Source: Guillardia theta CCMP2712 (Eukaryota > Protista > Cryptophyta). From it: DNA of 64,000 nucleotides. The stretch lies in contig NW_005434657.1 of NCBI RefSeq assembly GCF_000315625.1, forward strand, positions 846,130 through 910,129, given 5' to 3'. Position numbers and translations under genes: made by a program. Position 1 is the stretch's first letter, and each line of letters opens with the position of its first letter. This document shows, one piece after another, positions 1,607 to 57,669 of the stretch. Below the pieces are notes generated by a model. It did no database searches. It was given only the letters and a program-made list of their open reading frames with translations, and was not told the origin of the DNA.

Positions 1607-2578
1607 TCAGAAGGAACTTCTTCGAACAAACATGTTTGGCATCTCAGGGTTGTTCTGATCGCTGTTTGTTGAGCATGCGGAGTCTTTGCGAACAAACTCA
1701 ACCTCGTTTGCGTTGCTAAGCGCCCTGGTAATCCCTTCTTCAGCCTTGGCCTGTCTTGTCAACCGGCCGTGCAAGGTGCTCTTCTGAAAACGGTCGACGT
1801 TGCTGCTGCCCACGGAATTGCGCGAGCGGAACGAAGAGCCGACAACATTCGAGGAGGATTGCCTCCAGGTCTTCCTGTCGCTGCCTTGGTTCTTGGAGGA
1901 ATCCGTGCAATGTAGGAGGCACTGGACGAGGATTGCGCACGCCTCTCCTTCGAGCTTCTTGTTCTGAATCATCTTCGAGATGTTGAGAACGTTGTTGGCG
2001 TACTTCGAGGCGAGGTCATGCTGGTTCTGATGGAGGTACACCCTCGCCAAGATCTCATGCGCCCTTCCCTCCATGAAAGGGTCCTGGCAATGTCTGGCAA
2101 TCTCCAAAGCCTGCATGCTTGCACGGACCGCACGTTCGAGCTCCAGGACCGAGAGACACTTATCAGCCAGCATGATGGATGACATGCACTCCAGCTCCTT
2201 GTCGCCCGTCGCAAGCGCGTGCGCGATCGACTCTTTCAAGGACTTGATCTCCAGCAAGGTAACAGGGTCTATGCTCGACGAGTACACGGAACCCCGGCGA
2301 CCGTCAAACGAACCTCTCTTGGATACATCATCCATCACCTTTCCTTCAACTTCTTTCGAAGATTCGGCATGCTGTGACGCGCCGGTGTTGTCTGAAACCT
2401 CGTTCTTGCTGCGAGACGACCTCCTGTACGACTTGGTGTGGCTGAATTCGTCTTCGTAGTTTTCAATCCAGAAACGAAGCACCCAATATCCGATTCCGAA
2501 TGTGACCATGACAAAGACCAGGATAGTCAACGACGATGCGTGAACACCCAGTGCGTATGGAAGGCCAAGTGTCACCAT
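1607..2578 (-). CDS. Membrane-anchored TPR-like repeat protein
   Basis: 323-aa single-exon ORF. N-terminal hydrophobic segment (LTILVFVMVTFGIGYWVL). TPR/SNAP-like helical repeats (QALEIARHCQDPFMEGRAHEILARVYLHQNQHDLASKYANNVLNISK…EGEACAILVQCL). Confidence 0.7.
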   Translation of the reverse strand: MVTLGLPYALGVHASSLTILVFVMVTFGIGYWVLRFWIENYEDEFSHTKSYRRSSRSKNEVSDNTGASQHAESSKEVEGKVMDDVSKRGSFDGRRGSVYSSSIDPVTLLEIKSLKESIAHALATGDKELECMSSIMLADKCLSVLELERAVRASMQALEIARHCQDPFMEGRAHEILARVYLHQNQHDLASKYANNVLNISKMIQNKKLEGEACAILVQCLLHCTDSSKNQGSDRKTWRQSSSNVVGSSFRSRNSVGSSNVDRFQKSTLHGRLTRQAKAEEGITRALSNANEVEFVRKDSACSTNSDQNNPEMPNMFVRRSSF

Positions 2579-4189
2579 GGCGGCTCAACTTGTTGAAGAA
2601 GTCGGACGCAAAAAGCAAGCAAGCTGTGTCAATGTGATCAAGTCCCAAAGATAGCTCTTGTCCACACAACGAAAACAAATCTTCGTGATCAAAGACCGAG
2701 TATGCTCCAAGGAAGTGATAGGAAGCGGCTTCAAACAAAGATGATCGACAGGGAAGGAGCGTGAAACAAGCCACGGGTGGGCAGCAGGGTAGGGAACGAT
2801 GGAGGTAACGAATGGATGAAGTGTATATGATGTTCGTGGGATGTGGGGTAGGGGTGGACAAAAAATCTGAAGGGGGCCTTCAAGCGGGGTGGGGTTATGA
2901 TTTTGCAAGTGGGTAAGCTGTGAGAATTGCCAGGCAATCAAAAGACAGGGAGAGGGCATCGATATGTATAGAACATCATTATGCTTATAATGGATACCTG
3001 GACCCTTTACGCTTGGAGCAAACGGCAATGAAACGATTCAGGGAAAACATGGGTGGGTCCAATCATTATAGGCTGACTGGGGTAGGGTAGTGATTGTCCT
3101 TGGGCTCCCAAAGGCCATGCGGGGCACCGGTGCTATAACATTGTAAAACGGTACTTAAAAACATTATTGCAACCAATAATTGTTGTACGCTGCCCTGGTG
3201 GACACGTCCAGGGCTTGGCTGGAGGGGATGACGTTAGGAATTTTCATGGTTCATGAGTGGGGTAGGGTAGTACAAGACGGGACGCCTCTTTGATCCCGAA
3301 GGCAGGGCTCGGAGCGAGGGTGGGGTCCATGGAGGGGTTTATTTTGAGGTGGGACTAACTGTTTGATAGGGGTAGTCATACGTGCAGGTGGGTGGGTTTG
3401 CAGGGTAGTGGTGGGGCAAGGTGGCTGTTTACCATGCCGTTGACTTCGATGTAGAACGTTCGAGGAAAGCACCAAGGTGGGTGGTGGGGATGGCAGGGGC
3501 TGAAAGGGGTTGGTCCTGAAGGTAGAATGAGGGGGTGGGGTCATTTTTCAGGAGGGGGGGTACCACTCCTGGAGTCCTTTATTAATATTGAGAGAAGACA
3601 GGTAGAACTCCAGCTGGATCCTCAACGTAAACTTCCTGATGTCTCCTCATGAATTTTGTAATCATGCTCTTAACTTTGAAATTTCAAGATCATCATTCAG
3701 AAACCGCAGTCCGAAACTGTTGGCTGCTGTAGTAAAGAAAACCCGAATGGTCATGTAGTAAAGTAATACGAAAATCTGAAAATCTCAAGTTTCATTTCAT
3801 GTGCCGGAGTCATAGGGACAGAATCTTTCCTAGTACCAGGTCCTAGGTAATCTCCCCTGGTAGATCTCTTGTGACCAGAAGTTATCTGAAAATAAAAAAG
3901 AAAATGTGGATGATTTAGGCACAATTGTGAAATCTGATCTGTATACTTCAATTTTTAACAACAAATTTGGGGCTAGAGCTCGAAGGTTTTAAAGGTATGT
4001 ACTGCACGGTCTACCGTACTAGTGAAGCGACTGGTACTACCACGGCTGGCTGTCACGGGCACCATCGGAGTGATCAGCAGTGCACTAGAGCGCTTATGTC
4101 ACAGCTGAGGGTGACAGCGCAGCCTCCTTGAGTCAATACCAGGACAAGCACTACCGTACTACTACATCCGGGGGTGCTGCTACTTGATG

Positions 4190-13867: not shown

Positions 13868-16678
13868 TCAACGAGGCTCTGCCGTCTTCTTCCTCTTGAC
13901 CTCTTCCCCTCCTCTTCTCACTCGCTCGAGCGACTGTCGGAAACGCTGGATGATCCCCATGACCTGCAGGCCTTGAAACCTCCCCAGCCAGCCTTGCGCG
14001 CAGCTGACTTCATCGAATCGCATCACAGAGTCCGACAAAACTTCCTCCTCCTCCTCCTCCCCTCCGTCGTTGAAGGGACGCTTCTTGGATCCGCCCTGCC
14101 GTATCTCACCCTCCCCCCCCGCCGTCCGGAGCTTTGAGGCCACTGCCTGCAACGCGTTGACGTGTCAGGGTGCAGGCGCGACCGTGACGATGTATGAAGG
14201 CAAGCTCGGAAGAAGTTGAAGAGGAGAAGAAGGCAGGAGGGAGAAAAGAGAGGGAGATCAGTTGGTGATGATGGAGGGTGAGAAGGAGGGCGGAGAGACA
14301 GTGGTGGTGGCAGGAGAGGAGGAGGAAAAGTCAGGAGGCAGAAGAGAAGATGCGGAAGGGAGGGCGAGGAGAGCGCGAAATGAGTTGGCGGTGATAGAGG
14401 AGGAGGAGGGAGGAGGGACAGCAGTGGTGGTAGTGTGAGAGGAGGAGTACAGCATGCGAGACCTTGACGGGAGCGATGGAGAAGGGAACGGGCTCAGCGC
14501 TATGGTCCCCGTATGCGACAGGGGTAGAGTGATCCCCCGTCACGCAGATGACGAAAGGCTTCCCTGCTGGAAAGATGAGCCGTTGTGAAGGGGAGGATTC
14601 AGGAGATCGCCTGTCTCTTGCTCTATCTCCGCCAGTCCCTTTGCTAGCTCACCAATCATGTTGTCAACCTTCTGCATGCCGGCAGTCAGCACCTCCTCCT
14701 CCTCCTCCTCCTCCTCCTCCTCCTCCTCCTATCTCCCCCCGCCCTCAACCCTCCTCTTCCTCCTGTAGACCTTCAAAAACTTGAGCTTCAATTCCGCACT
14801 CTTATCATGACCAGCATCCTGCACAGAAACCTTGAGTGGATGGAAAGAGAATAACGAGGAAACTAGTTTCGGGATTTGGATGAAGGGATAGCACCAAGGT
14901 GGAAGACACGGATGGAATGGAGGCAAGAGAAACGCAGGAGACACAAGTGATGATTGTTCTAATTGTGATGGTGATAGTGATGGTGATAGTGATGGTGATG
15001 GAGATGGTGATGGTGGTAAATAGGAAAGAGGGAGAGGGGGAGGAGGAGAGGGGAAGGAGCAGAGGAAGAGAAAGGACAGCAAAATTTCCTCACATCAACT
15101 GCCTTGACGTGAACAAAACCAAGCTCATACTCAGGAGTTTTCTTTTTGAAGGTTGCGAGAGCTGCGAACATGTGTCAATAGAATCTCAGATCCTCCCTTG
15201 CCCGCTCCTTCCTTGCTTGCCTTCCTCTCCTCCCTTCCTCTCCCTTCTCTTCCCTCGTACCCCCTCACTCCTTCCTCATCTACCTGTCCTGGCCTTCGAC
15301 TGCAGGTCGGTATGATAATCTCCCGTGGCTCCGGGAGCATCAACGATGTCCATCTCTAGCGACATGCCGAGCCCGCGGATGAGGCAGGTGGGAGCAATCA
15401 TGAAGCTTCTCATCCCGTGCTTCTCCTCGAACGTTGGCACCTTCTCCCAGCTCAGCACCCCAGCAGCAGCTCAGATCAAGACCTTCACGCGAGCCCCACA
15501 GCCGCGTAGGAGGACGGCGTTGGCCGGCAGCTTGCCTTGCTCCACCCGATCCTTGTTAATCTGGTGGTCCTGTAGAGCTTCGGTGATCGCCTGCACCACC
15601 ACAACCAAGACTGTGAGGAGGAGGAAAATTTGCTCGCTGCAGGACCTGGGAGAGCGAGTTGACGAGCTTCGCTGTGAGCTCTGCCTCCTCGGAGGAGTCT
15701 AGCGGGCAGGAGCGTCGGAGGGGGAGCTTGTCCTTCAGCGGGTCGGTCCCAGTGATGTTGTCCGATAGGCTCGGGCCCCTCACCCGCAGCCCGCATCTGT
15801 GCTCGGTCGCGTACTTGACAGCCACGGAGTGCTGCTCGTGACAAGGTCAGCACGAACAGGAAGGGGGGACGGGGGGGGGGCGAGCCTGTGGGAAGGAGGG
15901 AATGGCGATCCCGTTGAGAAAGTCACATAGGATGGGTCCAACCTGCAGGAATTGAGTGAGGAGGAGGGAGGGAGGGAGGGAGGGAGGGAGGGAGGGAGGG
16001 GAGGGGATCAGACATTCTCGAAGTTTCTGTCTGCACGCCGAGACTCGACGATCCCGTCCTTGCCCAGGTAGGCGAAGTTGCACTGGACAAGACGCTCAGT
16101 GATTCCAAGAGCAAGGGATGAAGAGAGGGAAGAGGAGGGAGTATCAATTGGACAAGGGAGCGGAGCAGAGGACAGGAAGAGGGAGGGGGGCAGGGAGATG
16201 GGGAGGGAGGGGGAGAGGCAGAGGCAGAGGGACAATCAGTTCTACAGTCTCATCACCTTGAAGGCAATGTCGCCTGGCTGCATATCTAGCCCTGCACCCA
16301 TAGTCTCGAATGCTCCCCGACCCCTGTAGTACCTGGAAGGGTGAAGGTGTGAGTGAGAAGGAGGGGAGGGAGGGAGCACAAACTTTCTTGGGTCGTAGCC
16401 GAACATGGAGAGGTGGGCTGTGTCACTTCCGCATGCCAGACCTGCGCGCGTTCAGTTCCCGCCACCAGCTCTTCTTTTCTCTTGCCTGCTTGCACCGGAT
16501 CCATCAGCCCAGAGATACCCGAGGATGCTACCGAGCAGCAGGCGTCCATCTGAGCGATGTCCAGCAGGCTCCTCTTCACACTCTCCTCTTCCTCCTCTCC
16601 TCCTTCTCCTCCTGCTCCTGATCCTCCTCCCCTTCCGATGTCGCCGACCCCATCGATGAGCACCCAACACACGCCCAT
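13868..16678 (-). CDS. apgM: 2,3-bisphosphoglycerate-independent phosphoglycerate mutase, archaeal ApgM-type (metalloenzyme superfamily)
   Basis: Motifs across exons: [128 protein letters not shown]. Confidence 0.92.
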
Positions 16679-16963
16679 GCCGCCCCTATGTCCGTTACGT
16701 CCTCGTTGCTGACGTTACATTTATTGCAGCGAGGCAGGCTTGAACCTTTTTTTAAGCTTGTTCCAGGTATGCTTCATAGATTCGATGTATTGCTGATAGC
16801 GCTGTCCTGGAAGTGCGGAGAGCTTGGTATAGTCCAGGTAAGCCTTGTTGTTGCTGTCTTCCATGCCTTGTCTTCATGACCACCGGTTGTAAGGAGGACT
16901 ATGTGGGTAGGGGTGATAAATGGGGGAACAGTATAGTGGTGGTTGCGCCAATACAAAAGGGCA

Positions 16964-17716
16964 ATGCGGATAGTGCGGGCATGGAGGCTGAAGCGAGGAA
17001 GCGGATGGGGAGGAGGTCACCATGCACTCTCAAGCGCGCAGGAGAAGAGTATGAACTCAAACAACCATGCATGGAAGATTGTGCACCTCATGAGACATGG
17101 GGAAGGAGAGCACAATGCCGCATGTGATATTGCCGGCGATGAAGACCTGTATGAAGACGAACGATATTTCGATGCAGGACTCACGAATGATGGCAAAGAG
17201 CAAGCACGGGACGCAGGTATCCAGCTTCAAGGATCAAAGCTTGATGCAGTGGTAGCATCGCCTCTATCTCGCGCTCTCCAGACAGCCATGATCGCTTATC
17301 GGGCATGGAAGGACCACTCGCAACCAACGCTATCAGATCCGCGCTTCGTCTGTGTGGAATGGTGTCGAGAGGGCATGACTTACGGTGTACATCCATGCAA
17401 TCGCCGGAGAGCGATATCAGAAGTTAAGTCAGAGTTTCCTCAGTTCGATTTCTCCCACATCGCTACTGACGAGGACGAGATCTGGCGGCGGGACGGGTCG
17501 GAGTCTCAGCAAGACTTGAATCATCGGGTTTCCTTGTTCTTGGAATGGCTTGAAAACCTGGAGGCAAAGCACGTGCTCGTCTGCACTCACTGTGTCTTCC
17601 TGCATGCACTCTTTGCCAACTTCGTCAGAGAGCAAGACAATGCCGTCAATTCCTGGTTTGGACGAGGAGAGCTGCGATCGTTTGTCTTCGAGTTCCAGAA
17701 ATCCGAAAGTCCCTGA
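16964..17716 (+). CDS. Histidine phosphatase superfamily protein (phosphoglycerate mutase-like, PMU1-like)
   Basis: Motifs VHLMRHGEGEHN, DAGLTNDGKEQA, SPLSRALQTA, CRE…HPCNRRR, LVCTHCVFL. Start is at 16964 or 17051. Confidence 0.9.
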   Translation: MRIVRAWRLKRGSGWGGGHHALSSAQEKSMNSNNHAWKIVHLMRHGEGEHNAACDIAGDEDLYEDERYFDAGLTNDGKEQARDAGIQLQGSKLDAVVASPLSRALQTAMIAYRAWKDHSQPTLSDPRFVCVEWCREGMTYGVHPCNRRRAISEVKSEFPQFDFSHIATDEDEIWRRDGSESQQDLNHRVSLFLEWLENLEAKHVLVCTHCVFLHALFANFVREQDNAVNSWFGRGELRSFVFEFQKSESP

Positions 17717-17939
17717 TGAGCCGCCATGGAACACTCTGACATGCTCCACCTCCGATCGTGATGGAGTGCTCACTTCTGTCCGAAGTTCGGATGCTGCGGA
17801 CTTGATGGCATTTCTTGATGCAAACCAGGGCTGCAGTCTTCACTTTCCGAAGTTGTTGAACTGAATGAACTATGCTTAGTCTCTTCGGGAGCCTGTCTGG
17901 TGTGAGTTTCACGTTTCTTGTTTGCGACACTCAGGAGTA

Positions 17940-18245
17940 ACGGCCGCGGCCGCGTCGTTCTTCCCTCCGACACACTGACATGTCACAGTCCGAGCCCACT
18001 GCCGTACTTAGTGGGTGACACTCACGGTGAGATTGAGCATTGAAGTTCGGACCCGGCCGGGCTGCGGCCTGCTTCAAGCGGCCACCGGCGGGCCGCGGGC
18101 CCGCTTGCTATAACCGGGCCGGGTGCCAGGGTGCCAGGGTGCCACGGGGACGGTGACCGGGCCGCGGGCCCGGCCGCTTGCGGCCGCAACTTGCCTTAAC
18201 ACCGGCCCAGGCTCTAACTTTACTCAAAGTTAAGTGAAAGTTAAC
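17940..18245. repeat. CCGG-rich intergenic element copy
   Basis: ACTGCCGTAC…GTGACACTCAC…GAAGTTCGG, then a CCGG/GGCC block, then CTTTACTCAAAGTTAAGT at 18218-18235. Confidence 0.65.
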
Positions 18246-19227
18246 CATGACACCGGGCGTTTTAAAATGTGGTTATTGCTCTTTCTGATCATAGTACTAT
18301 AATTTTATTTTTATATTCATTATTTTGTAACTTCGCATTAAATACTACTTGCAATACATATCTTCCCTAATGATTGTTGGTATCAAAGATATATATATAT
18401 TACACCCCACAGTACAACAATAATACTTATTGATTCCTTGTAGTCAACTCTCAAGAGGTTTCACGGATTTTAAAAGTCGGTTTTTAAAACTCCTGTTTTA
18501 ACCTGGGGTATGGCGAGAGAATGGGGGATGGATAGGGGGGAGCGAATGGGAGACTCTTAGAGAGGCAGGAAGACGTAGAGGAGGGATGAAGCTTGAAGTT
18601 TAGATAAGAACAAGGCTGAGAAAGACATCATCAGCTCATGAAATGGTGCTGAGGTCGCCCTTGAGCTCAATGAGCAATCGGAGAAGTACATATTTGGGTG
18701 GTGGATTGAAGAGGACAGGTAGAGGAAGACGAATAGATAAATTTCCATAGATGAATTCCAGACATAATAGTGATGAATAACCGTAGACGCCGACAAGAAG
18801 CTCGAAAAGATCATGGTGCTCTTGTCCAGGTTTGGAAAGCATAGCAGGCATGTCAAGAAGATCATAGCCTTGTCAATTACCAGAAAGAAAGACATCGTGT
18901 ATCAGTGAGTCTTTCGTGATGAATATGTTTTGAAGCATAGAGGGCAGCAGATTGTTCAAACCTCCCCAAACGATCAGAAATGCGAATAGTTGTGAGGTAG
19001 AGCTAGGATAGCAACTGCATCAAAACTATGATGTGATTTGTTGCGATCGGGTACATTCGTTGAGTGGAAAGACGTCATGGGCACTGTCCATACGAGCATG
19101 AATGATCGGCTTGCTGACTTTGGTTGTTTCCAGACCTCAGGAAGCGAACGGGCCTTGAATCATGTTGAATCAGCTAATGAGACGGCTGGGAAATATGGCC
19201 ATATAATCCTGTTTGCTCTAATATCTG

Positions 19228-22200
19228 ATGAAGAGCCCTGTCTGCCATCACAACAAAGATCTCACAGGCATACTGAATGGCTCGGGCAGAGTGAAGAAGA
19301 AACATATCAACTTGTTCTTTCTCACGTTTGCCATTGTAACTCAATGCTCCTTCTCTGCTCCTCTTCCTCTCGTGACCAAATCACCTGAGCATCCTGTGAC
19401 TTCCAACTTTCGTCGTGTGAATGGCTGTGATGGAGTCACATGCAAGGTATGTGATCACCCTTGTTTGCAGCTTCAGGCTCTGACTTCCTCCTCCTCCTCT
19501 TCCTCGTCTCTTGCATCAGACTTGCTCCTGCTACACCAGCTCCTGCTACTGCACAGTCTCCTTCTCCAACCTCATCGTCGATGGAGTTCTGAACAACCCG
19601 GCATCGAGCGGCTCTCCAACTTCTTCCATCAACGCCATCAGGTTGACAGTCTCCGTCGGCTGCGCCTCCCTGCTCCGCCCCTCCACCTCTATTTCGGACA
19701 TCACCTACTCCCCCAACGTCGTCGATAAGGTTGTTCCCATCAGCAACAGCGCCGTATGCAGCGACTGCACGTCCTCCTCCCAGATCGCCTACCTCGAGAT
19801 TTCTCAGAGCACCATAAGCAGCGTCAAGCTTGCAAACACACCCATCAGCGTCACTGTCGGGAAGGCGTCTGCTTGTCAAACTTCCTCTGCTCCCAGCTCC
19901 TGCCAGCCCTGCGTCAACGTCACGAGCTACCTCGATGTTCAGGTGTATGCAGAGTTCAGCTACGTGGCCACGAACAATGGGTCGCCTACTCGGCTCCTGC
20001 TGGGGATTGTGTTTGCGATCGTGTGGACGATCATCATGGTGGTTCCTGTCATTATCTGGCTCCGCAGGCGCCGCTCCAACAGCATCGAGGACCCAGCTGG
20101 TTTCCAGCAGCTCCACGTCATGATGCCGACATCACGCCGATCTGCGCGGCGGCGAGCGATCCGGACGCGCCCTCGTCGGTTCAAGGCGATGAAGCAGGTG
20201 GAGTGGGAAGGAGAGCGAGGAGAGAACAGGAGGCGGCATGGTTGGGTCCTGTCGAGTTCCGACATCGCCGAGCAGTCGAAGGAGATCCTGGAGAGGAACT
20301 CGTCCATCCTCGGCAGGAACGCACCAGCAGCTGTCGTGTGCAAGCTCGAAGACGGATGGTGCAAGATCGTGCGGGCTACCGAGAGGGGGCAGCCGCGAAA
20401 GATCCAAGTGAGCAGCGAAGAGATCGAGGTACTCGCTCCTCCCCTCGTGCTCCTCCCTTGCCCCCTGCTCACATGCCGTCCTTCTCTCTCCTCTCCTTGC
20501 TCACTGATCGGTTGCACTCGTCCTTCATCGTTCCCTTCTCCTTCCCTCCCGCTCCTCTCGCTCCCGCCCTCCCGCGTCCATACTTCTGCCGCCTTGTCCA
20601 CAACCCTCATCCTGCCTCCTTCTCCCCCCTCCCCTCCCTTTCCTCTCTCTGACCCTCTTCCCATGTACAGAGAGAGAGCATGCAGAAGGAGGGATACGTT
20701 CTCATCACTCTCCCTCAATCTGTCCGCTACGGACAGGTGAAAACTTGCCCTTGCGCTCCCTGTGACCCTGACAGTCCTCCAGGGAGTGTCGGGCGACATT
20801 CAGGTTGACATCTTCGGCAACATCATCCCTTGGAGCCACTGCAAGGAGTCTGAGGACTTGAGGACCAAGATAGACAAGTGAGATGGGAGGGTCTGTTGGA
20901 GGAGAGAGAGACTTCAGCATGTTGCGATGGGAGATGTTGAGATGATGTGGAGGAGTTGATGATCGAGGCTGATGTACGACAAGTACATTTACTTGGATGC
21001 TCCTGACTTGATGTCCCTGAAGCTTCCGAACTGTGCTGGACAACTTCCGATTCTCTCACTTTGGGAATGATCGCAAAGAGCTGCACATTTCCATCGAAAG
21101 GTTCAAACCATCTCGTAGCTTGCTTGCTGGCCCTCATGCTCGTGATTTCAGGTCAACCCTCTGGCAGAGCTCCTTTGACACTGTCATGAAACTTTCCAAC
21201 ATCGACATGCTGCGGACATTTCATATCCAAGTGAGCAGGACGAGGGAGGAGGACGGATGGTAGTGGGTGCAGGGAGGAGGGGAGGGGGGCGGGGAGTACG
21301 GAAGAGGTGAGAGTGGAGCAGGAGCAGGGAGATACAAGCAGGAGCAGGTGGTGGTAGAGGATCATTGATGGAAGCGTGAAAGTGTTTTGGCCTTGTCTGA
21401 ATGTTTTTTGTTTCAGTTTGTTGGTGAAGAAGGGTCGGACTTTGGCGGGGTGAGACGCGAATGGTATCATCTGATCACGTTGGAGTTGGTTAAGGTGAAT
21501 GATCTTTCCTCTCCCTCTCCCCCTTCTTCCTCTTCTACCACTTTTGTTTCATCTTCATCATCTCTATTATGATCCATACCACTACAATCTTCTTCTCCTC
21601 TGCTGCCGTGACCTGTCGCTGCTCTGTGAAAACAATCGTCATCATTCCGCACCTGAACTTCCTTCCTTCTGCTCCTCCTCCTCTTCCCTTACTTATGACT
21701 GCAGCCGGAGTATGGATTGTTTGAATTCAGCGATGAATCTTACCTCTATCAGCTCGCAAGCCACATCGACTCCAAGGTGAATCACTCCCTCCTGCATGCT
21801 GGCCTCCCCTATCCAGTCTCCTCCTCTATCTCGGCCCTCTCCTCTCCTGCCTCCTCCTCCTCCCTATCCCCCTGCTCTCTTCCTCTTCTTCTCATCGCTA
21901 CTTCCACCACCACCTGCCGCTCCCTCATAACCTTTTTAGGCGGGCGAGACCGCCGTAGGAGCACAAGCTGTGGTACGAGGCGATTTGGTCAAGGTAACTG
22001 AGATTCTCTCCTCCCTCCTCCCTCCTCCCTCCTCCCTCCTCCCTCCTCCCTCCTCCCTCCTCCCTCCTCCCTCCTCCTCCTGCTTTTCCATCCCTATCCT
22101 ATACCTTCTTTGCATCTCCTCCTTTCCCTTGTCTTGTCCTGCTCCTCCTGATGACATGTCTGTAGCTCCTCGACTTCTTCTCTTTCGCCGGGAAGATTCT

Positions 22201-23557
22201 CGCCAAGTGCATCGTCGACCAGCAGATTTGCAGCGTTCAGTTCACGACGGCTGTCTACAAGAAACTTCTGCTGCTCCCGTTCACGGTGAGAGGGAGAGAG
22301 TGAAAAGGAGAGGGAGGGAAGACCAGGGGGCAGTGTGCACGAGGGAGGAAGAGCAAGAAGGACAGGGAAGAGCAAGAAGGGGAAGGGAGGGAAAGGGAGA
22401 GGGAGCGCGAAGGGAGGGGAGCGAGAGGACGGGACAGGGGGTTGAGCAAGGTTGCGACGATGGCGGGGGAGAGGGAGGGATAAGGGGGAACGGGGATCAT
22501 TGACAAGTTCTCCCGCAGGTGGAAGACTTGGAGTCAGTTGATCGAGAGTTGTATCACTCCCTCGAGTGGGTCCTGGAGTGCAATGCAGATGAAGAGGTCT
22601 GCTGTGACATTTGCTTCTCCGACCCCCTCCTCCTCATGCCTGCCCTTCACCAGTTCCTCATCTTCCTCCTCTTCCTCCTCTTCCTCCTCTTCCTCCGTCG
22701 CTTCTTTTTCGTGCTCCCTTTTCTCTCCCCCCATTCTCCTTCTATCCTCGCTCATCCTCGTCCTTCCTAGTCTCGACTGATCTCTTCCGCTGCTGCTCTC
22801 TTTGTTCTCTTACCCCCCTGCAGGATCTTGCCATGTATATGTGTGTGGATACAACGGATGTGGATGGCAACTATGTAGGAGGAGGAGGAGGAGGAGGAGA
22901 GAGGGGAGGCGGGGGGAGTGGGGGGAGTGGGGGTGAAGGAGGAAGAAGAGAAGAGGTATTCTTGTGATGACGTATCGTTAACAGATCACGATCGATCTCG
23001 TGGAGGGAGGCCGAGACATCCCGGTGACGGAGGCCAACAAGCATCAGTTCGTGCAGAAGATGATCAACTGGCGCCTCGTCGACCGCGTTGCCGTCCAGAC
23101 CGACGCCTTCGTCGCCGGCTTCCACTCCGTCCTGCCCCTCGAGTACCTCCAGCCCTTCTCGGCCGGCGACCTTGAGCTCCTCCTGTGCGGCTCGACTGAG
23201 ATCGACATCGAGGACTGGAAGGTGAACACGCTCTACAAGTCAGGCTACAGCAGCGAATCCGACATCGTCGGCTGGTTCTGGGAGCTCGTGAGGAAGATGG
23301 ACAACGTGGAGCGGATGCGCCTCCTCCAGTTCGTGACCGGCACCACCGCCATCCCCAGCAGAGGCTTCGCGCATCTCCAGGGGTCAGACGGGGAGAGGAG
23401 GTTCAGCATCATGAGGGTTGTGGATACGAGGAGGCTGCCGCAGGCGCACACTTGCTTCAACGAGCTTGTGCTGCCTGAGTACGCCACCCAGGATGAGTTC
23501 GAGGCGAAGCTGCTTAAGGCGATGGAGCATGTCAACGATGGGATTCTCCTGCGTTGA
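19228..23557 (+). CDS. Transmembrane HECT E3 ubiquitin ligase (hydrophobic leader, Cys-rich ectodomain, TM, NEDD4-like HECT)
   Basis: HECT motifs: FVGEEGSDFGGVRREWY, YGLF, FAGKILAK, DLESVDRELYHSLEWVL, IPVTEANK, WFWELV, LLQFVTGT, LPQAHTCFNELVLPEY (catalytic Cys at 23453-23455). TM at 19994-20062 followed by RRRR. The N-terminal start is uncertain. Confidence 0.88.
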
Positions 23558-23893
23558 CGTCCCAGCAACCTGTGTAGATTATGTGCGAAGACACTGTGAA
23601 ATAATACCAAGACAAACACTGAGAGGTCGGAAGTTCCTCTAGAACCACCTTGAGTTGTACACTCAAACCAACATGTTGATAGCATCCAACATCGGATGGT
23701 CGTTTAATGAGCCTTCTCGGGCAGCAGCGCCATATCCTCACTGACAGCAACACCAATCAAACTGCATCATAGGGTCACGAGGTGAAGGCAGCTTCGCAGC
23801 TCGTTGGCTCTTGGCTGCTCATCACTGTCATATCCGTTCGCGCCATCATCGACACTTCACGTTCATTTCATCCTGGTGAGCAGGCGAACTCCT

Positions 23894-25145
23894 TCAAGGA
23901 GCTCCTCTCCTGCAGCCGTCCACGATGATGGGGCGATTGACAGCATCCACTGCAGGATACCTGAGCCAACCTCAGCACAACACATCCAGCACCGCCTTCA
24001 TGTTACTTGGAGTTTCCTCGCTTGATCTTGCGAAACCCTGCTTTGTCTTTGTGTCCGTGCTTGCCTGCTATGGCGTCAGCGACTCGATTCCACACCAAGA
24101 TCAACCACCAGTCGCCTGCACAATCTGCTCGATGGCAGTCTGAGCAAGGAAGACACAGTGCTGAGGCCCAGTGATGACAAAGACAGGATCTTGACCGCGC
24201 TGTGGAGGTCAAGGTCAGCAGGACGGATGGTTCGAGTTGTTTTTACCTTCGGGCTTACAATGGTTGTGCACGTTTGCAGTGCGATGCCCTGAATGACGCT
24301 ACCCGATGGCCCAACAACCAATCCGACTCTATCCGCAGGTACCTGTTGTTTTCTTGCATCAGATCGCTGAACAACGGGGTTCAAACATCGGCAAGATCTC
24401 ACCGATAAGTTGATCGTTACGTTTTCTACTGACTCTTGCCATGGAACAATGCTAGCCTGAGAGAGGAGAAGTCAGCATCTTGCGATGAGAGAAGGATCAC
24501 GCCGCAAACATCACTCACCTGATAGACTTTGGCTTCGATACAAGCTTTCGCCGCTTCTATGCAGATTGGCGTCCCAGTGACCTCAAACTCAGGTTTCCCA
24601 CCCTTGATTGGACATTTTATCTGCGTTCTGCTCTGGTACGCGATGGTATCGATGACCACGTGTTGTGAGCCCATTACGAATCCTACCAAAGACTCCGGGA
24701 CCACCACCACTGACGTGCGAGTGGCATCCTTGTGATCCTTTGCTTCCCTTTCTAACGCCTCATGCTCCTTCGCCCTGATCAGAGCCGATGCAGCATTGAC
24801 AAGAACCTTGGCTCCCGAGATGACGAAGATGGGCTCTTCCCCTTTGCGCGGAGAGAAGATCGTAGTCTCCGTCTGCTGCGCGATCTCGTTTATCACGCGC
24901 CCCTTCGGACCCACCACGAACCCAGCACAGTCTTGCCGTACTTTCAGCTTGATTGTGGTTATAGCCTCGTTTCCTCCCGCACTCCCAGCATTCTTTTTGT
25001 CGCTCCTATCGACTCCGTCATGGCGTGCCTTCGCTTGATTTTCATGCCGTTGCATTCCCTTCGGCTCAGAATTCCGAGCTTCTTGCTTCTCGCGCTCACG
25101 CTCAGCTGCCTTCGCAGCCCACACATTCGGTGCTGGAGCTGCCAT
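23894..25145 (-). CDS. RNA-binding protein with three MEX-3-like KH domains
   Basis: AGFVVGPKGRVINEIAQQTETTIFSPRKGEEPIFVISG; VGFVMGSQHVVIDTIAYQSRTQIKCP…EFEVTG; VGLVVGPSGSVIQGIALQTCTTIVSPK|RGQDPVFVITG. Stop is at 24003 or, if spliced, 23894. Confidence 0.85.
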
Positions 25146-27490
25146 GGTTCCCGCTGTACTTTGAAAGAAAGATACTCAAACTCAAGGTATGCCCGTCTTG
25201 GCGCCTTCAGAGAATGTGCAGAGAATGTGCTGCGTCTTACAGTCTTCCAGCAATAAACTATGCAATACCAATGGATGCCTGATGCAACGTGCAACAATCG
25301 GACAGCACTGAGTTCAACTACCTTGTTTCACTCAGTCAGCTTTCCCTAGTTTCAAGCATCTCAAAGTTACCAGGATGTGAAAAGAGGGTTCACGAGCAGA
25401 TAATTACGGCTGCATGGAGTTCCAGGAAGAATTCTCCGCTGGCCTACACGTTACAAGCTCAGAACGGACACAATTCCTTGCTGGGATCTAAATCATTGTG
25501 TGTTTCCAACCAAAACCAAACAGCGAGTGAACTATGAATTTTCAAGCTGAACCAGCAAATCCTATACGTAGTCTAGCTCTGAGTCTTACGGTTGAGTTTT
25601 CACTTCAGAAGTCACATTCACCAGACAATCGAAAGAAGTAGAGCAGCTAAAATCCTCAGCTTTCTTTCTTTTTTGGACAACACCCACTCACAACCACCAA
25701 CGAGATGCCGAAACGAAATGAAAGAAGGAAACAAAGATGATGATGAAACATCAACATAATACATCAAGAAAATCTCAGCAGCATGCAAGAGAGGCTTTGA
25801 GGGAGAGCAAAAGCTCATGTTGCAATCTCTTCAACTAGCGCGATGGCCTTCACGAGATGGGGCTGGAGGGACACAACAGGCATCAGAGGAGAGGAAAATG
25901 GATATGCATCTTGCAAGGGTGAAGAGATGAAGAGGAGGAGGGGGAGATAACAGGAAGGAAAGAGCCATAGCCGCGTCTCCTCCCGCCTCCCCTCCCTGCC
26001 GCCGACATCCGCGTCCCTGCAATACCCTCATGACTCACACCACCCCACCCCCTAAAATCATCTCACTGTGATCCCACCCACCCACCACCCCACCCCTTCT
26101 CCTCCTTCATGAGTGTTGTATATGACCCCCACCTCCAAAGTAATCCTACTTGGATAAGCACGAGGATTATACATGGACCCCTCCAGTACATACCCTACCC
26201 CCATTTCTGATATTCAACCCCTCCAATTACCTGGAATATACCCCACCTTTTGAAATATCATTCTCACCCTACCCTATTTTTGGAGTCCTGATCGTACAAG
26301 TACCCACCTCATTGATATCCAATCCATCGAAGTACCCCACATTTCCCCACAATTCTTGTACCCTACCCCCATTCAAAATTGTGGTCGCCCGATTTCGAAG
26401 GTCAATATATTACCCAAAATAGGGTAATAGATGGGGTGGTCCACCCCATCCCCGCAGCTTCCTCCACCCACCCCACTCTTATCTCAAGGATTGACCACCC
26501 CACACCACCATCCCCAATACTACGACCGGTACCGTATCCCCGGTTACATCAACCCACCACCCCCTCTAATGCTTTCCTCACCCAGTTTTTTCCTCTGCTT
26601 GGAGAAGGTGGGGTAGGCCAGTGCACGAGGGTACTACCCCTACCCTACCCCCACATTTCCCCCTTCATCGTGCCCCACTACCCCCAACCCCACCCTCACA
26701 TTGTAAATCAAGTCCGCCTCAGCGTTTGGGCCATAGCGCAAAATGCACTGTGAACTAGGAGGTAGTAGGAAAGTGAAGCGCCCAAAAGAAGCGCGCGAGG
26801 CTGCAGAAACAAGGTCAGGAGCAGAGCATGCAGTCAACACGACCTAATGTTGGAAGCTCTCCGAGGCTCTAGGAGGACACTGCATCTGCGAGCGCGGGCA
26901 GCAGCGGTTCAATGTTCACATGACATCCCATTTTAGCATCTTGGACGGACAGAGGACGTATGAAGGAAAGAATGTTTCAGCATGCGATGTCTTGATCGAT
27001 CTCCGTGGATCTTTGATGCTGCTGACTCCGGCTTCAACTGGCATTCTGCGGCTGGCGTATGAGGGAATCGTACTAGACGATCGCATTGGAGGACGAGGGC
27101 CTTTGGACATTGATGTACTCTTTCGATGATCGGTTGTCGCTCACATATGACGACGTAACCCACTGTTCACGTCGTTGGGTTGGGTTGTATACAATTTCAC
27201 CAGGGAGGTGAAGTGAACTGCAAAGTCGCCGATTCATAGCTGGACGAAGATAAAGTGTGGTGGAGGGGCTGGGGAGGAAGGGCGGGACAGTGATGATCTA
27301 GTGGAAGAGGAAGACAGACCCTCTATGAGATGTCGTCATTACAATCTGCTATGGACATGATCTCGCTGTCACCTCAGAGGGGAGGTCTATTTAGAGGAGC
27401 CTGAGGAGGGCGACAAGGGTACCGATTAAGTCTTTATGATCTTACAACGATGACAGCAGCGTCATCAACAAGAATAAATGAAAGAGTTGG

Positions 27491-29955: not shown

Positions 29956-32014
29956 TCAAGAGGGGGAGGAGGTAGGAGACGATTTAAAAGCTTGTCAGAT
30001 TGGCGCCTCTGTATCCTGGGGATCGAGTGCTGGTGGTACCAGAGGACAGCAAGAAGTCAGCGTACATGGCGACGGTGACAGATCTCAAGACGCTCCTCTC
30101 GGAGCACGTGCCGAGCGATCCCTGTGCTGGCAGGAAAGAAGCTGTTGAGGGAGGAGGGAGGAGGGGANNNNNNNNNNNNNNNNNNNNNNNNNNNNNNNNN
30201 NNNNNNNNNNNNNNNNNNNNNNNNNNNNNNNNNNNNNNNNNNNNNNNNNNNNNNNNNNNNNNNNNNNNNNNNNNNNNNNNNNNNNNNNNNNNNNNNNNNN
30301 NNNNNNNNNNNNNNNNNNNNNNNNNNNNNNNNNNNNNNNNNNNNNNNNNNNNNNNNNNNNNNNNNNNNNNNNNNNNNNNNNNNNNNNNNNNNNNNNNNNN
30401 NNNNNNNNNNNNNNNNNNNNNNNNNNNNNNNNNNNNNNNNNNNNNNNNNNNNNNNNNNNNNNNNNNNNNNNNNNNNNNNNNNNNNNNNNNNNNNNNNNNN
30501 NNNNNNNNNNNNNNNNNNNNNNNNNNNNNNNNNNNNNNNNNNNNNNNNNNNNNNNNNNNNNNNNNNNNNNNNNNNNNNNNNNNNNNNNNNNNNNNNNNNN
30601 NNNNNNNNNNNNNNNNNNNNNNNNNNNNNNNNNNNNNNNNNNNNNNNNNNNNNNNNNNNNNNNNNNNNNNNNNNNNNNNNNNNNNNNNNNNGGGAACACA
30701 CCTTTTTTCAAACCCTTTTTCTTGTGCACACTCGTACAAGAGAGAAGTGTGTCGTCGTAGACATGTACACAGTGCCTCGGTGCTGAGATCCCGTGCCTTA
30801 AGCCCTGCTCCGGGAATTCCTGGAGAAGTCCGTGCACAGTCCCATAGGGAACGCAAAGCATAGGAAGTTCCAAGTTCGATTACCCATCCCCACGTTCTGG
30901 TATGTCGGACCTCAGCTCGCCTACAAGTCTCTTCCTACGGAGGCAAGGGCGGATTACCTTCCTTCAAAAATTTCGAGGACGGCAGTGTACGGGAGTTTGA
31001 GGAACTCGTCTGGTGGGTTGGGTTCCACTTCGACCGAGTGATCACGAGGGTCTCCTTCTATCTCCTCGTTCCTGCCTAACTACATAGAGGAGAGGCACCT
31101 GCAGGAGGTAAAGCTGTCAATCGAGAGACACCTCCGCATCTCCGTCAGCAACCTGGCGAGACAAACCAAAGAGTACAAACCTCAGGAGTTGTCTCAACAT
31201 GTTCTAGCAATGGAGGCCATCGACTGGCTCTGTCGCGGTTGCAACGCCATCAGATCGGAGAACTTCCATCGCAGCTACCCGTTCTTCGACATGCTCATCC
31301 CAACTCCCGTCAAACGCTTTTGCATCTTCCCCACCGCTCTGAGTGGGATCAAGACTTTGACCTCTACAGCAGAAGATGAAAAACTTCCGCCGCAGAGTTG
31401 GAGGATTTCTTGTGAGATGATGCTTGTGTCAAATCTTGTGCTTTCGCAGGGAATGAACATGGGAGGAGAGGGGCAGGGGGAGGGAAACGGGGACGGGGAG
31501 GAGGCGGTTGGGAGTAGAGGAAGGGAGTCTGAGGGCAGATGTAGGACAAGAAATCTCAGCGACCTGTGGACCTGACGGATGAGGAAGAGATCTTGAAGCT
31601 GCTCAACGAGACGACGAAGAAGTGACAAACTATCTTCTTTCCTCCCTCCTTCTCACCCTTTCTTGCAGAGATCAAGTCAAGAAGGTAGAGGATAACCCCT
31701 TCCTCCTCCCCTCCTCCCTCCCCTCCCTCCCCTCCCTCCCCTCCTCCGTCCTCTCTTCCCATTTCCTCGTCATGTTCCTCCTTCCAGTTTCCAGCTTCTT
31801 TCTTCTTTGATGTTTCTACCTCCTCCTCCTCGGATCCCCTCCCTCTTTCCCTGCTTGATCCTCCCCCCTCACGCGGCATGGCTGCTTCCTCTCCTCTCCT
31901 CCCTCCTCACCTCAGCGCTCACTGCCTACACCATCGCAGACGTTGGAGATTCAGCAGGAGATGAGAAATCTGATGCAGCAAGCGGAGCTTTTACTGTCGT
32001 CAAAGCTTTCCTAG
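29343..32014 (+). CDS. Signal-peptide protein with an RLRGG motif, unknown function (spans an assembly gap)
   Basis: MRYLREWTILLFLSSSFVCSS…ARLRGG. Spliced exons continue across the gap to …QAELLLSSKLS* (TAG 32012-32014). Continuity across the gap is assumed. Confidence 0.55.
30168..30691. other. Assembly gap
   Basis: Run of N. Confidence 1.
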
Positions 32015-40331: not shown

Positions 40332-40664
40332 TCTTGCGCTTCCTGTATCCTTCCTCTCCCACCGTCACTTGTTTCCACTTGCTGCTGCTCTTCCTTCTCG
40401 GCTCCTCGTCTGCCCGCGACCTTCTCGTCTTCTCCTCTCACTCTAGTTCCTTCACCTTTGCCCTGATCTGCATTGCGCCCCACCCAAAAAAGAATAACTG
40501 TAAAAGTTTAAAAAAACCTGATAAACAAAAAGAAACAAAAAAAAAGAATCTTGAGAACCCCCCGAGAACATTCGGGTCATGACGATGGTGGGGAGCGATG
40601 CGACGGGCTTGTGAGATGGACATGCTGAAGAATTGACGCTGAAGAGAGGAGCAAGACGTAGACA

Positions 40665-42140
40665 ATGACCTCTTTGAGATGCAGCTTGTGCCATGCTCAG
40701 ATAGAAGGATCATACTTGAAGAAAGATGGCAAGGCATACTGTTCCAAGCACAAAGACCAACTGCTGGAAAAGTGTACGAAGTGCTTAAAACCAATCAAGG
40801 ACAGATACCTCAAGGTGGGCAACGGCGAGATGTATCATCCGGATTGTTTATGCTGCGAAGTCTGCGGAAAGGCGTTCCAAGATTCCAAGTTCACCATCTT
40901 CAACGGAAAGAGGATACACCCCACTTGCTTGCGTTGCTGTGTGCCGGGCTGTGAAGCAACCTTAGACATCAATGGGTTCCGACAAGAAGAAGGGAAGCCA
41001 TACTGTCAGAAGCACTATGATGAAAAGTTCACCAAGAAGTGTGAATTCTGCGGCAATTACCTTCGAAAAGAATTTATTCTTGTTGGTGTGGCTGACAAAC
41101 CAGGCTCGAAAACTCAAAAGAAGCGAGCATGCCATGAATGTTTCAAATGTGTTCAGTGTGGAATGTCCCTCGAAAAACAAAAATTCTTTGTACATGAAGG
41201 GGATTTCTTTTGTGAGAAGGATTACCAAACGAAAGTTTCCCCAAAATGCATGGTCTGCAGCAAGTATGTTGAGAGTTTTATTCAGCACGAGAGTGGAGAG
41301 GTTTACTGTGAAAACGATTATCACGCTAACCCAGTGTGCTTTTCATGTGCACGACTGGTGTTTGGTACGCGCAAACACGCGCTGGACTTGCCAGATGGAC
41401 GTGTGATTTGTGAGAGATGTAACCAAGATGCAGTTTGGAAGTCAGAGGATGCTGCTGCTCCTTTCCGCAAGGCGAAACAGTTCCTAGCGGATGTCCTGGG
41501 CATTGCAGATAAGGAGATCGACTCTGTCAGTTTACGTTTTGTGGAACGAAGTGACGTGGCGGCCTTGCGGGGAGAGCATTCGAGGAGCGTTCATGAGACA
41601 CAGGTCACCGACAAGAAGTCCTACACCATGGGAACGACGATCATCGTAGAGGAGACGGAGAACGACGAGATCGTGAGCCGCCAAGTGGAGGGGATCAACC
41701 TCCTCTCGGGGCAGACAGCCATGCAGCTGACGTCTACGCTAGTCCACGAGCTGATGCATGTCTACCTGTTCTCAAGACGGTTCGGCAAGCTTGATCCTCT
41801 GGTGGAGGAGGGCATCTGCGAGCTAGCTGCTTTCCTATGGCTGGACAAGTTCGCCCCTGAAGGTTAAGGGGTTCGCTCGACCTCTCCTCCTGTCTGACTT
41901 GCGATCCTGCAGGTATGGAACGGAGCATGCGGCTGAATCAGAGGCTGTTCAACAGCTCCAAGGTCTACAAGGCCGGTCTCGCTGCCTCGCAGAAGAGGTC
42001 TGTGCATTCATGTGATCGGGGTCGTCCTGAGGAGTTTCGTCCTCCTTCCCAGGTTCAAGGAGCTTAACGGCGACAAGGATGTAAAGGCGGTGTTCCAGAA
42101 GATCCTCAACGAGGTGAAGGAGCTCAGGACGTTCAGGTGA
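40665..42140 (+). CDS. LIM-domain zinc metallopeptidase, DA1/DAR-like
   Basis: Several LIM-type CxxC…HxxC…CxxC…CxxH/D fingers, a DA1 LIM-like CFSC…LPDGRVICERC unit, HELMH (41745-41759) and VEEGICEL. Two short 3' exons end at TGA 42140. Confidence 0.85.
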
Positions 42141-42568: not shown

Positions 42569-42668
42569 NNNNNNNNNNNNNNNNNNNNNNNNNNNNNNNN
42601 NNNNNNNNNNNNNNNNNNNNNNNNNNNNNNNNNNNNNNNNNNNNNNNNNNNNNNNNNNNNNNNNNNNN
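42569..42668. other. Assembly gap
   Basis: Run of N. Confidence 1.
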
Positions 42669-43390: not shown

Positions 43391-46300
43391 ATGGATAGCA
43401 CAAGGAGCTCGCGGCATCGGAGGCATCGGGGCAGAGGAAAGCCGAGGAGAGCCAACGATGATGGTGACGGTGAAGGACCAGAAAACTCTCGCCGTGATGG
43501 GCAGTCCGTGGCTCAGTTTCTCGCAAGAGCGAGGGACTGGCAGAGTATGAGCGAGGAGGAGGCGGTGCCAGCGCTCACGATGGTGGGAGAGACGAAATTT
43601 TCAGAGTTCGATGCGACGGAGGCAAGGGAGGCGAAGGAATGGATTGACAGTGGGATCGAAGAAGTCGTCAAGAACCCTACGAGTGACTTCAGTCAACATT
43701 TCCCAAGACGAAAGCTTTTCTTGATAGCTGTGCAGAACCTGCTGTAAGAATCTGTCTGTCTGCCTGCCTGCCTGCATGTGTAACTTAACGGTGTTTGGTC
43801 TCGTGGCTGAGTGACAGAACTCAGATGTGATTTTTCGGTATTTCAGGTTTCATAAGCGAGATCTAGTCGATAGAGACTGGTACAGGAAGGTAATCTCCGA
43901 TGAAAAATTCTGAGGATGCTTTCTTGAGTTGACCTTTAGGTTCTGCCGCCTCTACTTTCTCTGCTCCGAGAAGTATCGTCTGCGAGTTCTGGTGATATTT
44001 GATGTTCCTGCGAATGACTCTGCAGATAACACGACGTGATAGCAGCAACTAGGATATACCTCATCGAAATCCTCAAGACTTTGGAATCTGTTGTCTACAA
44101 CCAGACTGAGCCGAACAGGTTGAGTTGCATACAGGGGTTCAAGGGTTGCTAAACTAGCTTGCAGCGGCTTCTTCTCTGTCGTCATCAACGATGTTATGCT
44201 GATGTTGGAGAAGATTGCGAGCAAAGTGACAAAATCCGTTCCCCCTTTCCCCTATCTCTTTCCCTTTCCCTTTCCCTTCTCCATCCCCTTCCCTTCCTCT
44301 CCTCTTCCCCATTTCACCCCACCCCCTTCCCCTTCTCGATCTGCTTCCATCTGATCACCAAGGGCAGGAGATAGAGGACTTTCAAGTTCGCAGCGCAGCT
44401 CTAGCCTTGGTTGGAAGGTTTGTTCAATACCCCTCCCTCTCCCTCTTCCGTCTGCTTGATCTGCACTGCTCTCTTTCTCCTCTGCTCACTTCATCCTATT
44501 CCCTGATCCACATGCTCCCTCCCTCCATCCATCCATCCATCCATCCTCCCTCCCTCCCTCCCTCCCTCCCTCCATCGATCCCACACCCCCTCAGTCAGGA
44601 TCTTTCATCCAACACCCTCCTCCTTGACTCATACGTCCCTCCCTGTTGTCTCCTGCCTCACTCTTTCTCCTTGACTTCTTCGCTCAGCGCGGTGATGGGC
44701 CAAGGGAAGCTCCTGGAGGATGTGCCACAGGAGGCAAGCATGACAACAACTCCGAAGAGGAGGGATGTGAAGTCACCCACCCACAGATGTTCATGATGAT
44801 CGCCGTCAACCTTGAGCTTGCCATGAGGGTGCTGGAGAAGGTGGAGGCCTCGAGCTCGGAGGGGCTGTCGGAGGAGGCAGCGCAGCTGGTCGCCAGCTGT
44901 TTGCGGACGTTGCAGATCATGTTGTTGGAGGTGAGGGAGCGAGAGGTGATGACGTCAGCTGAGAGTTGTCAAGGTCACCACGTCGAGCTCCTCCGCCTCC
45001 AAGATCTGCACAAAACTTTCTGCGATGAGCAGGTGGGGAGGGACTATAGGGAAGGAAGAGAAGAGGGTGAGGAGGAGGAGAAGTTGGTGGAGGAGGAGGA
45101 AGAGGAAGTGGAGGGACGGGGAGGAGGAGGAGGAGGAGGAGGACTGATCGATTTGCATCTTCCTCCTCAGCGGGAGATTTCTTCCACAGCTCGCAGAGAT
45201 TCTTGTGAAAATCTTTCTGCGCGAGTCCTCTGCCTACAGAAGCCTGCGGGAGTCGAGCCAAGGGGAGAAGGAAGGGGTGGGGGAGGAAGGATCCGATAGC
45301 GACGCCTCCTATAGGAGCGCGACCAACAGCATGGGAGGCAACACGGATGACTCGACCGCCGACCAACTCGCTCGTCCCATGATAGTCAACGCTTGCAAGA
45401 CGGCAGGGAAAGTGAGATTGTACTCCATCCTGGCCATCCAGGTGATGGTTGAGGAGGACGAAGGGGGGGGCTGGGATGAGAGAAAGAGAGCGAGAAAGAA
45501 GAAGAAGAGGGGGAAAGATGATGACGACAAGAGGCGAGGATCGAACAAGAGGCAGGGGGGAGGAAGGAGGAGCGAGTGCTTGACGGAGGTTTTCAGGGTC
45601 TCGCGAGGATGCAGCCTAAGATTTTTCATCCTCTGTGGCCGATGCTGCTTCCTCGTAAACCCTGCCTCTCCTTTCCCTCCTCCTGACCTCCTCGACAGAC
45701 GCGGGCAGTCGACAGAGCTCGCTCCTCTCTGCCGTAGCGCTCGACCCTTCCCCGAGGACGCGCATGGCTGCAGCTGTGACCATCCATGTAAGGGCGAGAC
45801 AGGAGGAGAGAAGTGGGCAGAGAGGGAGAGCGACGGGGAGTGGGGAAGAGAGACAGAGGGAGAATGAGAGACCCTGAGCATCTTGCAGGCGCTCTTCCAG
45901 CGGTCGAAAGTTTTCATGGCAGCGGCAGAGGAGCACAGGGCGACGAGTTTCACGTCGCTGTCGCAGGTAGAGGAGGGGAGACATGCGAGGAGGAGGAAGT
46001 AAGGGAGACAACAGTCCCTGGCCATGACCATAACGAGCATGCACACGGGCCTCTGCTCTGCCGTGATGAGCGAGACGCATCTCGGAGCTGCGCAGCATGT
46101 GAGGGGAGAGGAGAGGAGGGCGAGAGAGGAGAAGAGGGCAGAGGAGATGGAGGGGGAGGGGGGGGGACAGGAGGGAAGGGGGGAAGGGGAAGGGAGGGGA
46201 GGGGGATGTCGGTGGAAGTTAGGCGANNNNNNNNNNNNNNNNNNNNNNNNNNNNNNNNNNNNNNNNNNNNNNNNNNNNNNNNNNNNNNNNNNNNNNNNNN

Positions 46301-57454: not shown

Positions 57455-57669
57455 CTTCAAACTTCGAGAACAATTGGGAGCGAGAGAAATCGAGCTGAGA
57501 TCAAGCACAGAGGGTGCACGAACGAAGGAGAACAAGGATCGAGCGAGCAAAAAGAAGAAGACAAGGAAGGCAAAGAAAAGGAGGGGAGGATGGGCTGACC
57601 ACTAAGCCCGGATGAAATCCCAGGGAGGAAACAATGGAACCAGAGGAGGATCAGGAACAAGAGCAGCAG

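Follow-up and report, generated by a model that had tools for sequence, protein, structure and literature searches.

In this study, a stretch of 64,000 nucleotides from the cryptophyte Guillardia theta CCMP2712 (contig NW_005434657.1, positions 846,130 to 910,129; hereafter the window, whose first letter is position 1) was investigated with regard to a gene on the plus strand at 19228-23557, which encodes a HECT-type ubiquitin ligase (E3) with a predicted leader, a Cys-rich outer domain and one membrane helix. Three-frame reading and junction checks yielded 13 exons that join into a single frame of 823 amino acids (aa) with no internal stops, and GT-AG borders were observed at all 12 introns, which upholds the in-frame linkage proposed by the first-pass annotation, a reading of the letters alone. 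The features of the gene are as follows.

19132-19133 (+): AG acceptor for spliced-leader trans-splicing (loose 5' ends of X1 and X3); mature mRNA runs from 19134 after the 17-nt leader
19162-19206 (+): upstream open reading frame (ORF) in the 5' untranslated region; 14 codons, three ATGs, in frame with the gene, stopping before 19228
19228-19446, 19520-20428, 20671-20736, 20783-20877, 21023-21100, 21152-21230, 21417-21494 (+): exons 1-7 of the 13-exon model
21705-21776, 21940-21993, 22166-22285, 22519-22596, 22824-22874, 22985-23557 (+): exons 8-13 of the same model
19228-19446 (+): exon 1, aa 1-73, with the start, the predicted signal peptide and the first ectodomain Cys (hydropathy, Hanusia phi comparison)
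19520-19993 (+): ectodomain part of exon 2, aa 74-231, Cys-rich, predicted beta-sandwich
19994-20062 (+): membrane-spanning helix (predicted) of aa 232-254, in which G235-x6-W242-x6-P249 shares a single helical face (hydropathy, alignment)
20063-20161 (+): aa 255-287, comprising the RRRR stop-transfer and a tether rich in Arg and free of Lys (residue counts)
20162-20877 (+): cytosolic linker, predicted to be a folded domain of about aa 288-430, encoded by the last part of exon 2 and by exons 3-4
21023-22874 (+): HECT N-lobe, exons 5-12
21417-21494 (+): exon 7, with E486, D490, E497, H500 and L501 (shared-motif reading against Rsp5)
22985-23557 (+): exon 13, aa 634-823 and stop, the remaining HECT (Pfam PF00632)
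23453-23455 (+): codon of the catalytic Cys790
23543-23545 (+): codon of Ile820, the -4 position
23622-23624 (+): poly(A) addition site (X18; A-only loose ends of four reads at 23622 and three at 23624, where the genome is not A-rich)

The HECT gene is transcribed, trans-spliced and cis-spliced into one mRNA that carries the domains in the order listed. The transcript comparison covered eight of the 21 listed sequencing runs, among which X1, X2 and X6 come from three studies; the RNA status of these runs is a guess, yet their contigs are spliced. One contig from each of them contains the ten GT..AG joints of introns 2-11, in agreement with the exon chain of the model, while introns 1 and 12 are supported by the coordinates of transcript records. 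The first-pass annotation had named separate transcripts for the helix and HECT exons as one outcome that would overturn it; the spliced contigs join both, and a single X6 record (19198-23430) crosses both. Moreover, an X3 record of 2644 nt is about as long as expected of the whole mRNA, and X18, which is recorded as RNA, contributed 237 reads, most of which lie at the 3' end. Contigs of X1 and X2 continue beyond 23900 toward a convergent KH-domain gene, and therefore define no transcript on their own; for the same reason the 3' ends of the two genes may overlap. X13 covers 16638-20618 unspliced, as expected of DNA, and the coverage of X12 is limited to the upstream neighbour gene.

At the 5' end, contigs from X1, X2, X3 and X9 start at 19132-19135, and non-genomic letters precede 19132 in the X1 contig (19 letters) and in the X3 contig (13 letters). 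Together with the AG at 19132-19133, these letters match the 17-nt spliced leader described for the cryptomonads G. theta and H. phi (PMC5619915), of which no exact copy was found in the 64-kb window. Since the leader joins at 19132-19133, the segments at 18600-19130 lie outside the mature mRNA; this, along with an in-frame stop immediately upstream of the ATG at 19228, excludes the earlier suggestion that exon-like segments at 18600-19200 extend the N-terminus. The region 18500-19130 itself harbors exon-like, stop-broken segments with low-depth unspliced cover and no Pfam match, and may be a decayed gene or the outron.

The protein is predicted to be a type I single-pass membrane protein with a cytosolic HECT and a non-cytosolic ectodomain. 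Kyte-Doolittle hydropathy revealed a short leader h-region at aa 29-38 (about aa 27-38), which is likely part of a signal peptide with a long n-region and cleavage near aa 43; the cDNA protein of H. phi begins at the Met equivalent to the 19228 start, and the h-region appears in 18 of 19 family rows, which had been chosen as having N-termini. The ectodomain that follows (aa 44-231) spans 188 aa, of which 12 are Cys and 29% are Ser or Thr, and a disulfide-rich beta-sandwich is predicted for it; six of its Cys are nearly fixed across the family in an alignment, a method that tends to favour Cys matches. With a 19-residue window, the whole protein displays only one hydrophobic segment, aa 227-256, followed by RRRR. 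Thus the hydrophobic leader, the Ser/Thr/Cys-rich segment of about 180 aa and the 23-aa helix with its RRRR, as the first-pass annotation had read them, were all recovered, while of its N-x-T sequon only the G. theta site itself stood: N206 carries one, the corresponding place in H. phi does not, and homolog P0003 has no sequon at all. The helix motif G-x6-W-x6-P is kept in 15 of 15 main-subfamily rows, and the W also in four divergent rows. Lys and Arg are richer on the C-terminal flank of the helix in all 19 rows, which by the positive-inside rule sets the HECT on the cytosolic side, as had been claimed.

Across 15 related rows, 138 Arg and not a single Lys were counted in the tether that follows the helix, next to 141 Arg and 104 Lys in seven HECT parts, a bias to which GC-rich coding could contribute; in the structure prediction its pLDDT (predicted local distance difference test) is low in part. 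Between tether and HECT lies a linker of about 150 aa that is predicted to be folded, that matched no Pfam family, and whose predicted topology weakly resembles C-type-lectin/Link modules.

By its domain and catalytic residues the protein is a HECT ligase, with predicted activity. The last exon matched Pfam HECT (PF00632) at E 2.8e-61, exons 10 and 11 matched weakly, and the H. phi ortholog aligned at E 2e-85 across profile positions 2-300 of 306; the catalytic Cys is C790 in the motif AHTCFN, so that the complete HECT described at first pass was borne out. In our shared-motif mapping, E486, D490 and E497 correspond to Rsp5 E491, D495 and E502, the acidic ligation residues whose roles are given in PMC3738095, and H500 and L501 to Rsp5 F505 and L506. 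Conservation extends to the catalytic Cys and these acidic residues, with the Cys, His, Glu and Asp of the HECT retained and the C-terminal tail constant in length.

The earlier label NEDD4-like held with respect to sequence similarity, as the best solved relatives of the HECT are ITCH (E 2.2e-82) and WWP1/2; it failed with respect to architecture. The NEDD4 family is defined by C2 and WW domains (PMC3673628), whereas Pfam scans of full-length members returned HECT only, with no C2, WW, PA, RING or Filamin match. A tree built from 27 HECT parts grouped nine members on one branch (100/99), in which P0069 has a long branch, and separated them from the 17 animal C2-WW rows that served as outgroup; 95 further C2-WW matches and other HECT classes, including HUWE1, HACE1 and UPL5, lay outside this tree. 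The protein resembles ITCH, WWP1/2, NEDD4L and Rsp5 in its closest HECT matches and its retained catalytic Cys and acidic residues, and differs from the NEDD4 family in its integral membrane anchor, the absence of C2 and WW domains, the Ile/Met at the -4 position and a branch separate from the 17 C2-WW rows of the tree. Membership of the NEDD4 family was rejected on the missing C2 and WW domains and the replaced -4 Phe.

The gene corresponds to the G. theta model Gt_67610 of the 2013 HECT survey (PMC3673628, supplement 2), a HECT-only fragment which by eye matches exons 7, 8 and 10-13 and is devoid of the first 482 aa and of exon 9; our homolog searches returned no full-length protein from this gene. 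The survey assigned architectures by Pfam only, and the word 'transmembrane' is absent from its main text. Because a truncated gene model and Pfam-only calls hid Gt_67610 there, similar proteins may hide in other protists. A second paralog in that supplement, Gt_144150, has leader, Cys-rich segment, helix, linker and HECT, is close to P0069, and has an end that looks mis-modelled; of the 25 G. theta HECT models examined, these two alone belong to the family. Two further models in the supplement were noted by eye: Gt_114449 has a mitochondrial-carrier-like hydrophobic region before its HECT, and the HECT C-lobe of Gt_106160 resembles that of the receptor-shaped family and of P0101. As general background, stramenopile HECT repertoires are large and poorly described.

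Full-length or nearly full-length members comprise P0002, P0003, P0016, P0017 and the divergent P0069, while P0004 (Teleaulax amphioxeia) is N-terminally incomplete and P0015 starts at the helix. P0002, an MMETSP cDNA protein of 820 aa from H. phi, is an independent sequence with the same layout as the G. theta protein, and is listed in UniProt by a generic HECT name. When a profile built from the non-HECT part was compared with 1.84 billion representatives, 32 matched at E <= 0.001, most of them exon fragments, and 21 of the newly found sequences were examined individually. Of four metagenome loci, two have the exons for ectodomain, helix and HECT together on a single contig, and two stop short of the HECT. 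Both members bearing species names are cryptophytes, and the family is likely restricted to that group. P0101, labelled Coleochaete scutata, has a HECT and a short N-terminal hydrophobic segment with neither ectodomain nor family linker, indicating that membrane-anchored HECTs occur outside the family too. P0183, P0186 and P0188 are divergent sequences with a leader, a very short Cys-Cys stub, a helix, the linker motif and almost no ectodomain, and they end before any HECT.

Conservation differs strongly among the parts of the protein. Identity to H. phi is 61% in the ectodomain, 96% in the helix, 90% in the linker and 95% in the HECT; to four distant full-length or nearly full-length members the corresponding values are 16-19%, 64-92%, 46-52% and 60-71%, with long insertions in the ectodomain, and to P0069 they are 14%, 24%, 27% and 38%. 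The helix, unlike the ectodomain, is conserved to roughly the same degree as the enzyme; the protein therefore probably has its fixed contact in the membrane, which makes capture of membrane partners the most likely function. This pattern favours recognition of membrane partners, which fits at least as well, over sensing of a conserved ligand.

We consider it moderately probable that the protein is a type I membrane ligase that captures partner membrane proteins by its helix and outer domain and ubiquitylates their tails for removal. In such a mechanism, the signal peptide and helix would leave the HECT in the host cytosol and expose the predicted disulfide-rich beta-sandwich to the lumen or the cell exterior, the G-W-P face would bind a substrate or co-receptor within the membrane, and the fast-changing ectodomain could supply specificity or control. 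The Lys-free tether and folded linker would hold the HECT beneath the membrane and offer no sites for self-ubiquitylation. As is known for HECT ligases, ubiquitin would pass from the conjugating enzyme (E2) to a Cys790 thioester and on to a lysine, leading to endocytosis, lysosomal sorting or degradation at the endoplasmic reticulum (ER). The working mode would be that of RNF43/ZNRF3/GRAIL with HECT chemistry, or that of a NEDD4/Rsp5 ligase carrying its membrane adaptor in the same chain. This reading and the four rivals weighed here overlap in part.

Several observations weigh against it. The leader n-region is 26 residues long. The helix conservation is specific to the subfamily, as the helix of P0069 is only 24% identical. 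The -4 residue is Ile or Met in nine of nine family members versus Phe in all 112 C2-WW matches, and Phe is found in P0101 as well. In Rsp5 this Phe is required for ligation, the F806L mutant still forming the thioester and failing at ligation, and an aromatic at position 506 rescues the mutant (PMC3738095); no family row has an aromatic at the L506-equivalent, which stays Leu, and the F505-equivalent is His, Ser or Asn.

The -4 substitution, the altered F505-equivalent and the Rsp5 F806L phenotype are what would be seen in a non-canonical HECT, in which ubiquitin is loaded on Cys790 and its discharge is slow or partner-dependent, so that the protein acts as a regulated ubiquitin or E2 trap. 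We give this idea a small chance, given the HECT identity of 95% to H. phi and 60-71% to distant members and the retained Cys, His, Glu, Asp and tail length. The Ile-Leu-Leu tail may replace the -4 Phe contact, and HECTD3 is active with a C-terminus different from that of NEDD4 (PMC13018541). Loss of the -4 Phe need not mean inactivity, because the domain is strongly conserved, P0101 likewise has no F505-equivalent, and HECTD3 is active.

The receptor-like layout also suits a ligand-gated sensor, in which a soluble extracellular or luminal ligand on the beta-sandwich would switch the HECT across the membrane, for example by helix dimerisation, to give a ubiquitin signal. The six retained Cys, the predicted fold of the ectodomain, the heptad spacing of the G-W-P face as a potential dimer interface, at least two G. 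theta paralogs with the same ectodomain layout, and a related branch almost without ectodomain (P0183 and P0188, whose sequences end before any HECT) are all in keeping with it. An ectodomain identity of 16-19% with long insertions is nevertheless unlike a conserved-ligand site, and no large paralog expansion was seen (32 representatives; two members among 25 G. theta HECT models), so that we hold the sensor to be possible but unlikely. A more elaborate proposal, which we regard as rather improbable, is a true ubiquitin-ligase receptor: a single-chain HECT with its output gated from outside the cell, which would have given up the -4 Phe anchor and would hold ubiquitin on the catalytic Cys until ectodomain and G-W-P face recruit either a partner or another copy of the protein to complete the ligation site, with the new, putatively lectin-like cytosolic domain as relay. 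If this is true, cryptophyte algae would have independently evolved a ubiquitin counterpart to receptor kinases.

Location distinguishes the membrane-partner ligase from a further rival, an ER/Golgi quality-control or contact-site ligase like AREL1, whose luminal domain would be a spacer or a sensor of misfolded cargo and no surface receptor; it differs from the preferred reading mainly in this respect. In its favour, a juxtamembrane stretch rich in Arg can keep a protein in the ER; against it, a 23-residue helix fits later membranes somewhat better. AREL1 is an ER HECT with one transmembrane helix and a cytosolic catalytic domain, and ubiquitylates a V-ATPase subunit (PMC12864862). Like AREL1/KIAA0317, the G. 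theta protein is predicted to be anchored by a single helix with the catalytic domain in the cytosol; the AREL1 helix, however, stands at the extreme N-terminus with no luminal domain, Filamin repeats occur in its family, the -4 Phe is kept, and the HECT match is weaker (E 2.6e-42). On these grounds we find the ER/Golgi rival distinctly improbable. Membership of the AREL1 family was rejected, as the helix lies at aa 232-254 after a 188-aa segment and no Filamin match was found.

Cryptophytes have complex plastids, and the E3 of their plastid import machinery (SELMA) is called elusive (PMC12412216), which would leave a place for the protein in the periplastid membrane. The predicted signal peptide, disulfide-type domain and stop-transfer helix would, however, put the HECT in the host cytosol and not in the periplastid space, and a nucleomorph Hrd1 exists in cryptophytes (PMC12412216), so that this assignment appears barely credible.

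With regard to known systems, the membrane-partner ligase would stand close to receptor-type E3s, which are described as type I RING proteins that ubiquitylate receptors (PMC12458338); the contrast with RING-type membrane E3s drawn at first pass therefore holds. As in RNF43/ZNRF3, GRAIL/RNF128 and the PA-TM-RING family, the predicted type I layout of the protein consists of a leader, an outer domain, a single helix and a ligase on the cytosolic side. The luminal domain of GRAIL binds substrates (PMC4021871), and in MEGF8-MOSMO-MGRN1 the membrane-adjacent MEGF8 stem is also a beta-sandwich (PMC12458338). It is unlike the RING receptor E3s in its HECT thioester chemistry, its lack of PA and RING domains, its extra folded linker and its occurrence in a single-celled alga. 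Membership of the PA-TM-RING group was rejected, as Pfam detected neither domain. The HECT protein probably works like a receptor-type E3.

The novelty implied by the first-pass annotation was thereby narrowed: a membrane-anchored HECT was already known in human AREL1, whereas no type I HECT with an ectodomain was found in the literature searched. That annotation had also overlooked the predicted folded linker domain, the loss of the -4 Phe and trans-splicing at the 5' end. The word 'transmembrane' is absent from the main texts of a 2026 HECT review (PMC13196369) and of PMC11354881, and a preprint (10.1101/2020.03.18.993998) mentions briefly that in membrane E3s the RING and HECT domains are turned toward the cytoplasm. 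The architecture of this expressed and conserved gene is apparently undescribed so far. With a conserved HECT of predicted type I layout, the receptor-ligase design seems to have originated once more, in a unicellular lineage and by different chemistry. Such a protein offers a natural single-chain model of how a thioester ligase could be controlled by signals or partners from the opposite side of a membrane, as well as a natural test of how general the -4 Phe rule is; its reach seems confined to one algal group.

The gene is flanked and accompanied in the window by the following features.

1607-2584 (-): TPR-like ORF
16758-16877: stretch of about 100 bp that recurs with differences on other X3, X9 and X13 contigs, and is for that reason likely a dispersed repeat
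16937-17716 (+): upstream neighbour, single-exon gene of the histidine phosphatase superfamily (PF00300, E 3.4e-19), with transcript-like X3 and X9 contigs
24076-25175 (-): downstream convergent KH-domain gene (PF00013)
30168-30691, 42569-42668, 46227-46922: runs of N (assembly gaps), none inside the HECT gene
40662-41867 (+): ORF with a LIM domain and a DA1-like peptidase (PF00412, PF12315), a ubiquitin-related and mainly plant family
56948-57601 (-): exon with a WAC/Acf1 chromatin-remodelling domain

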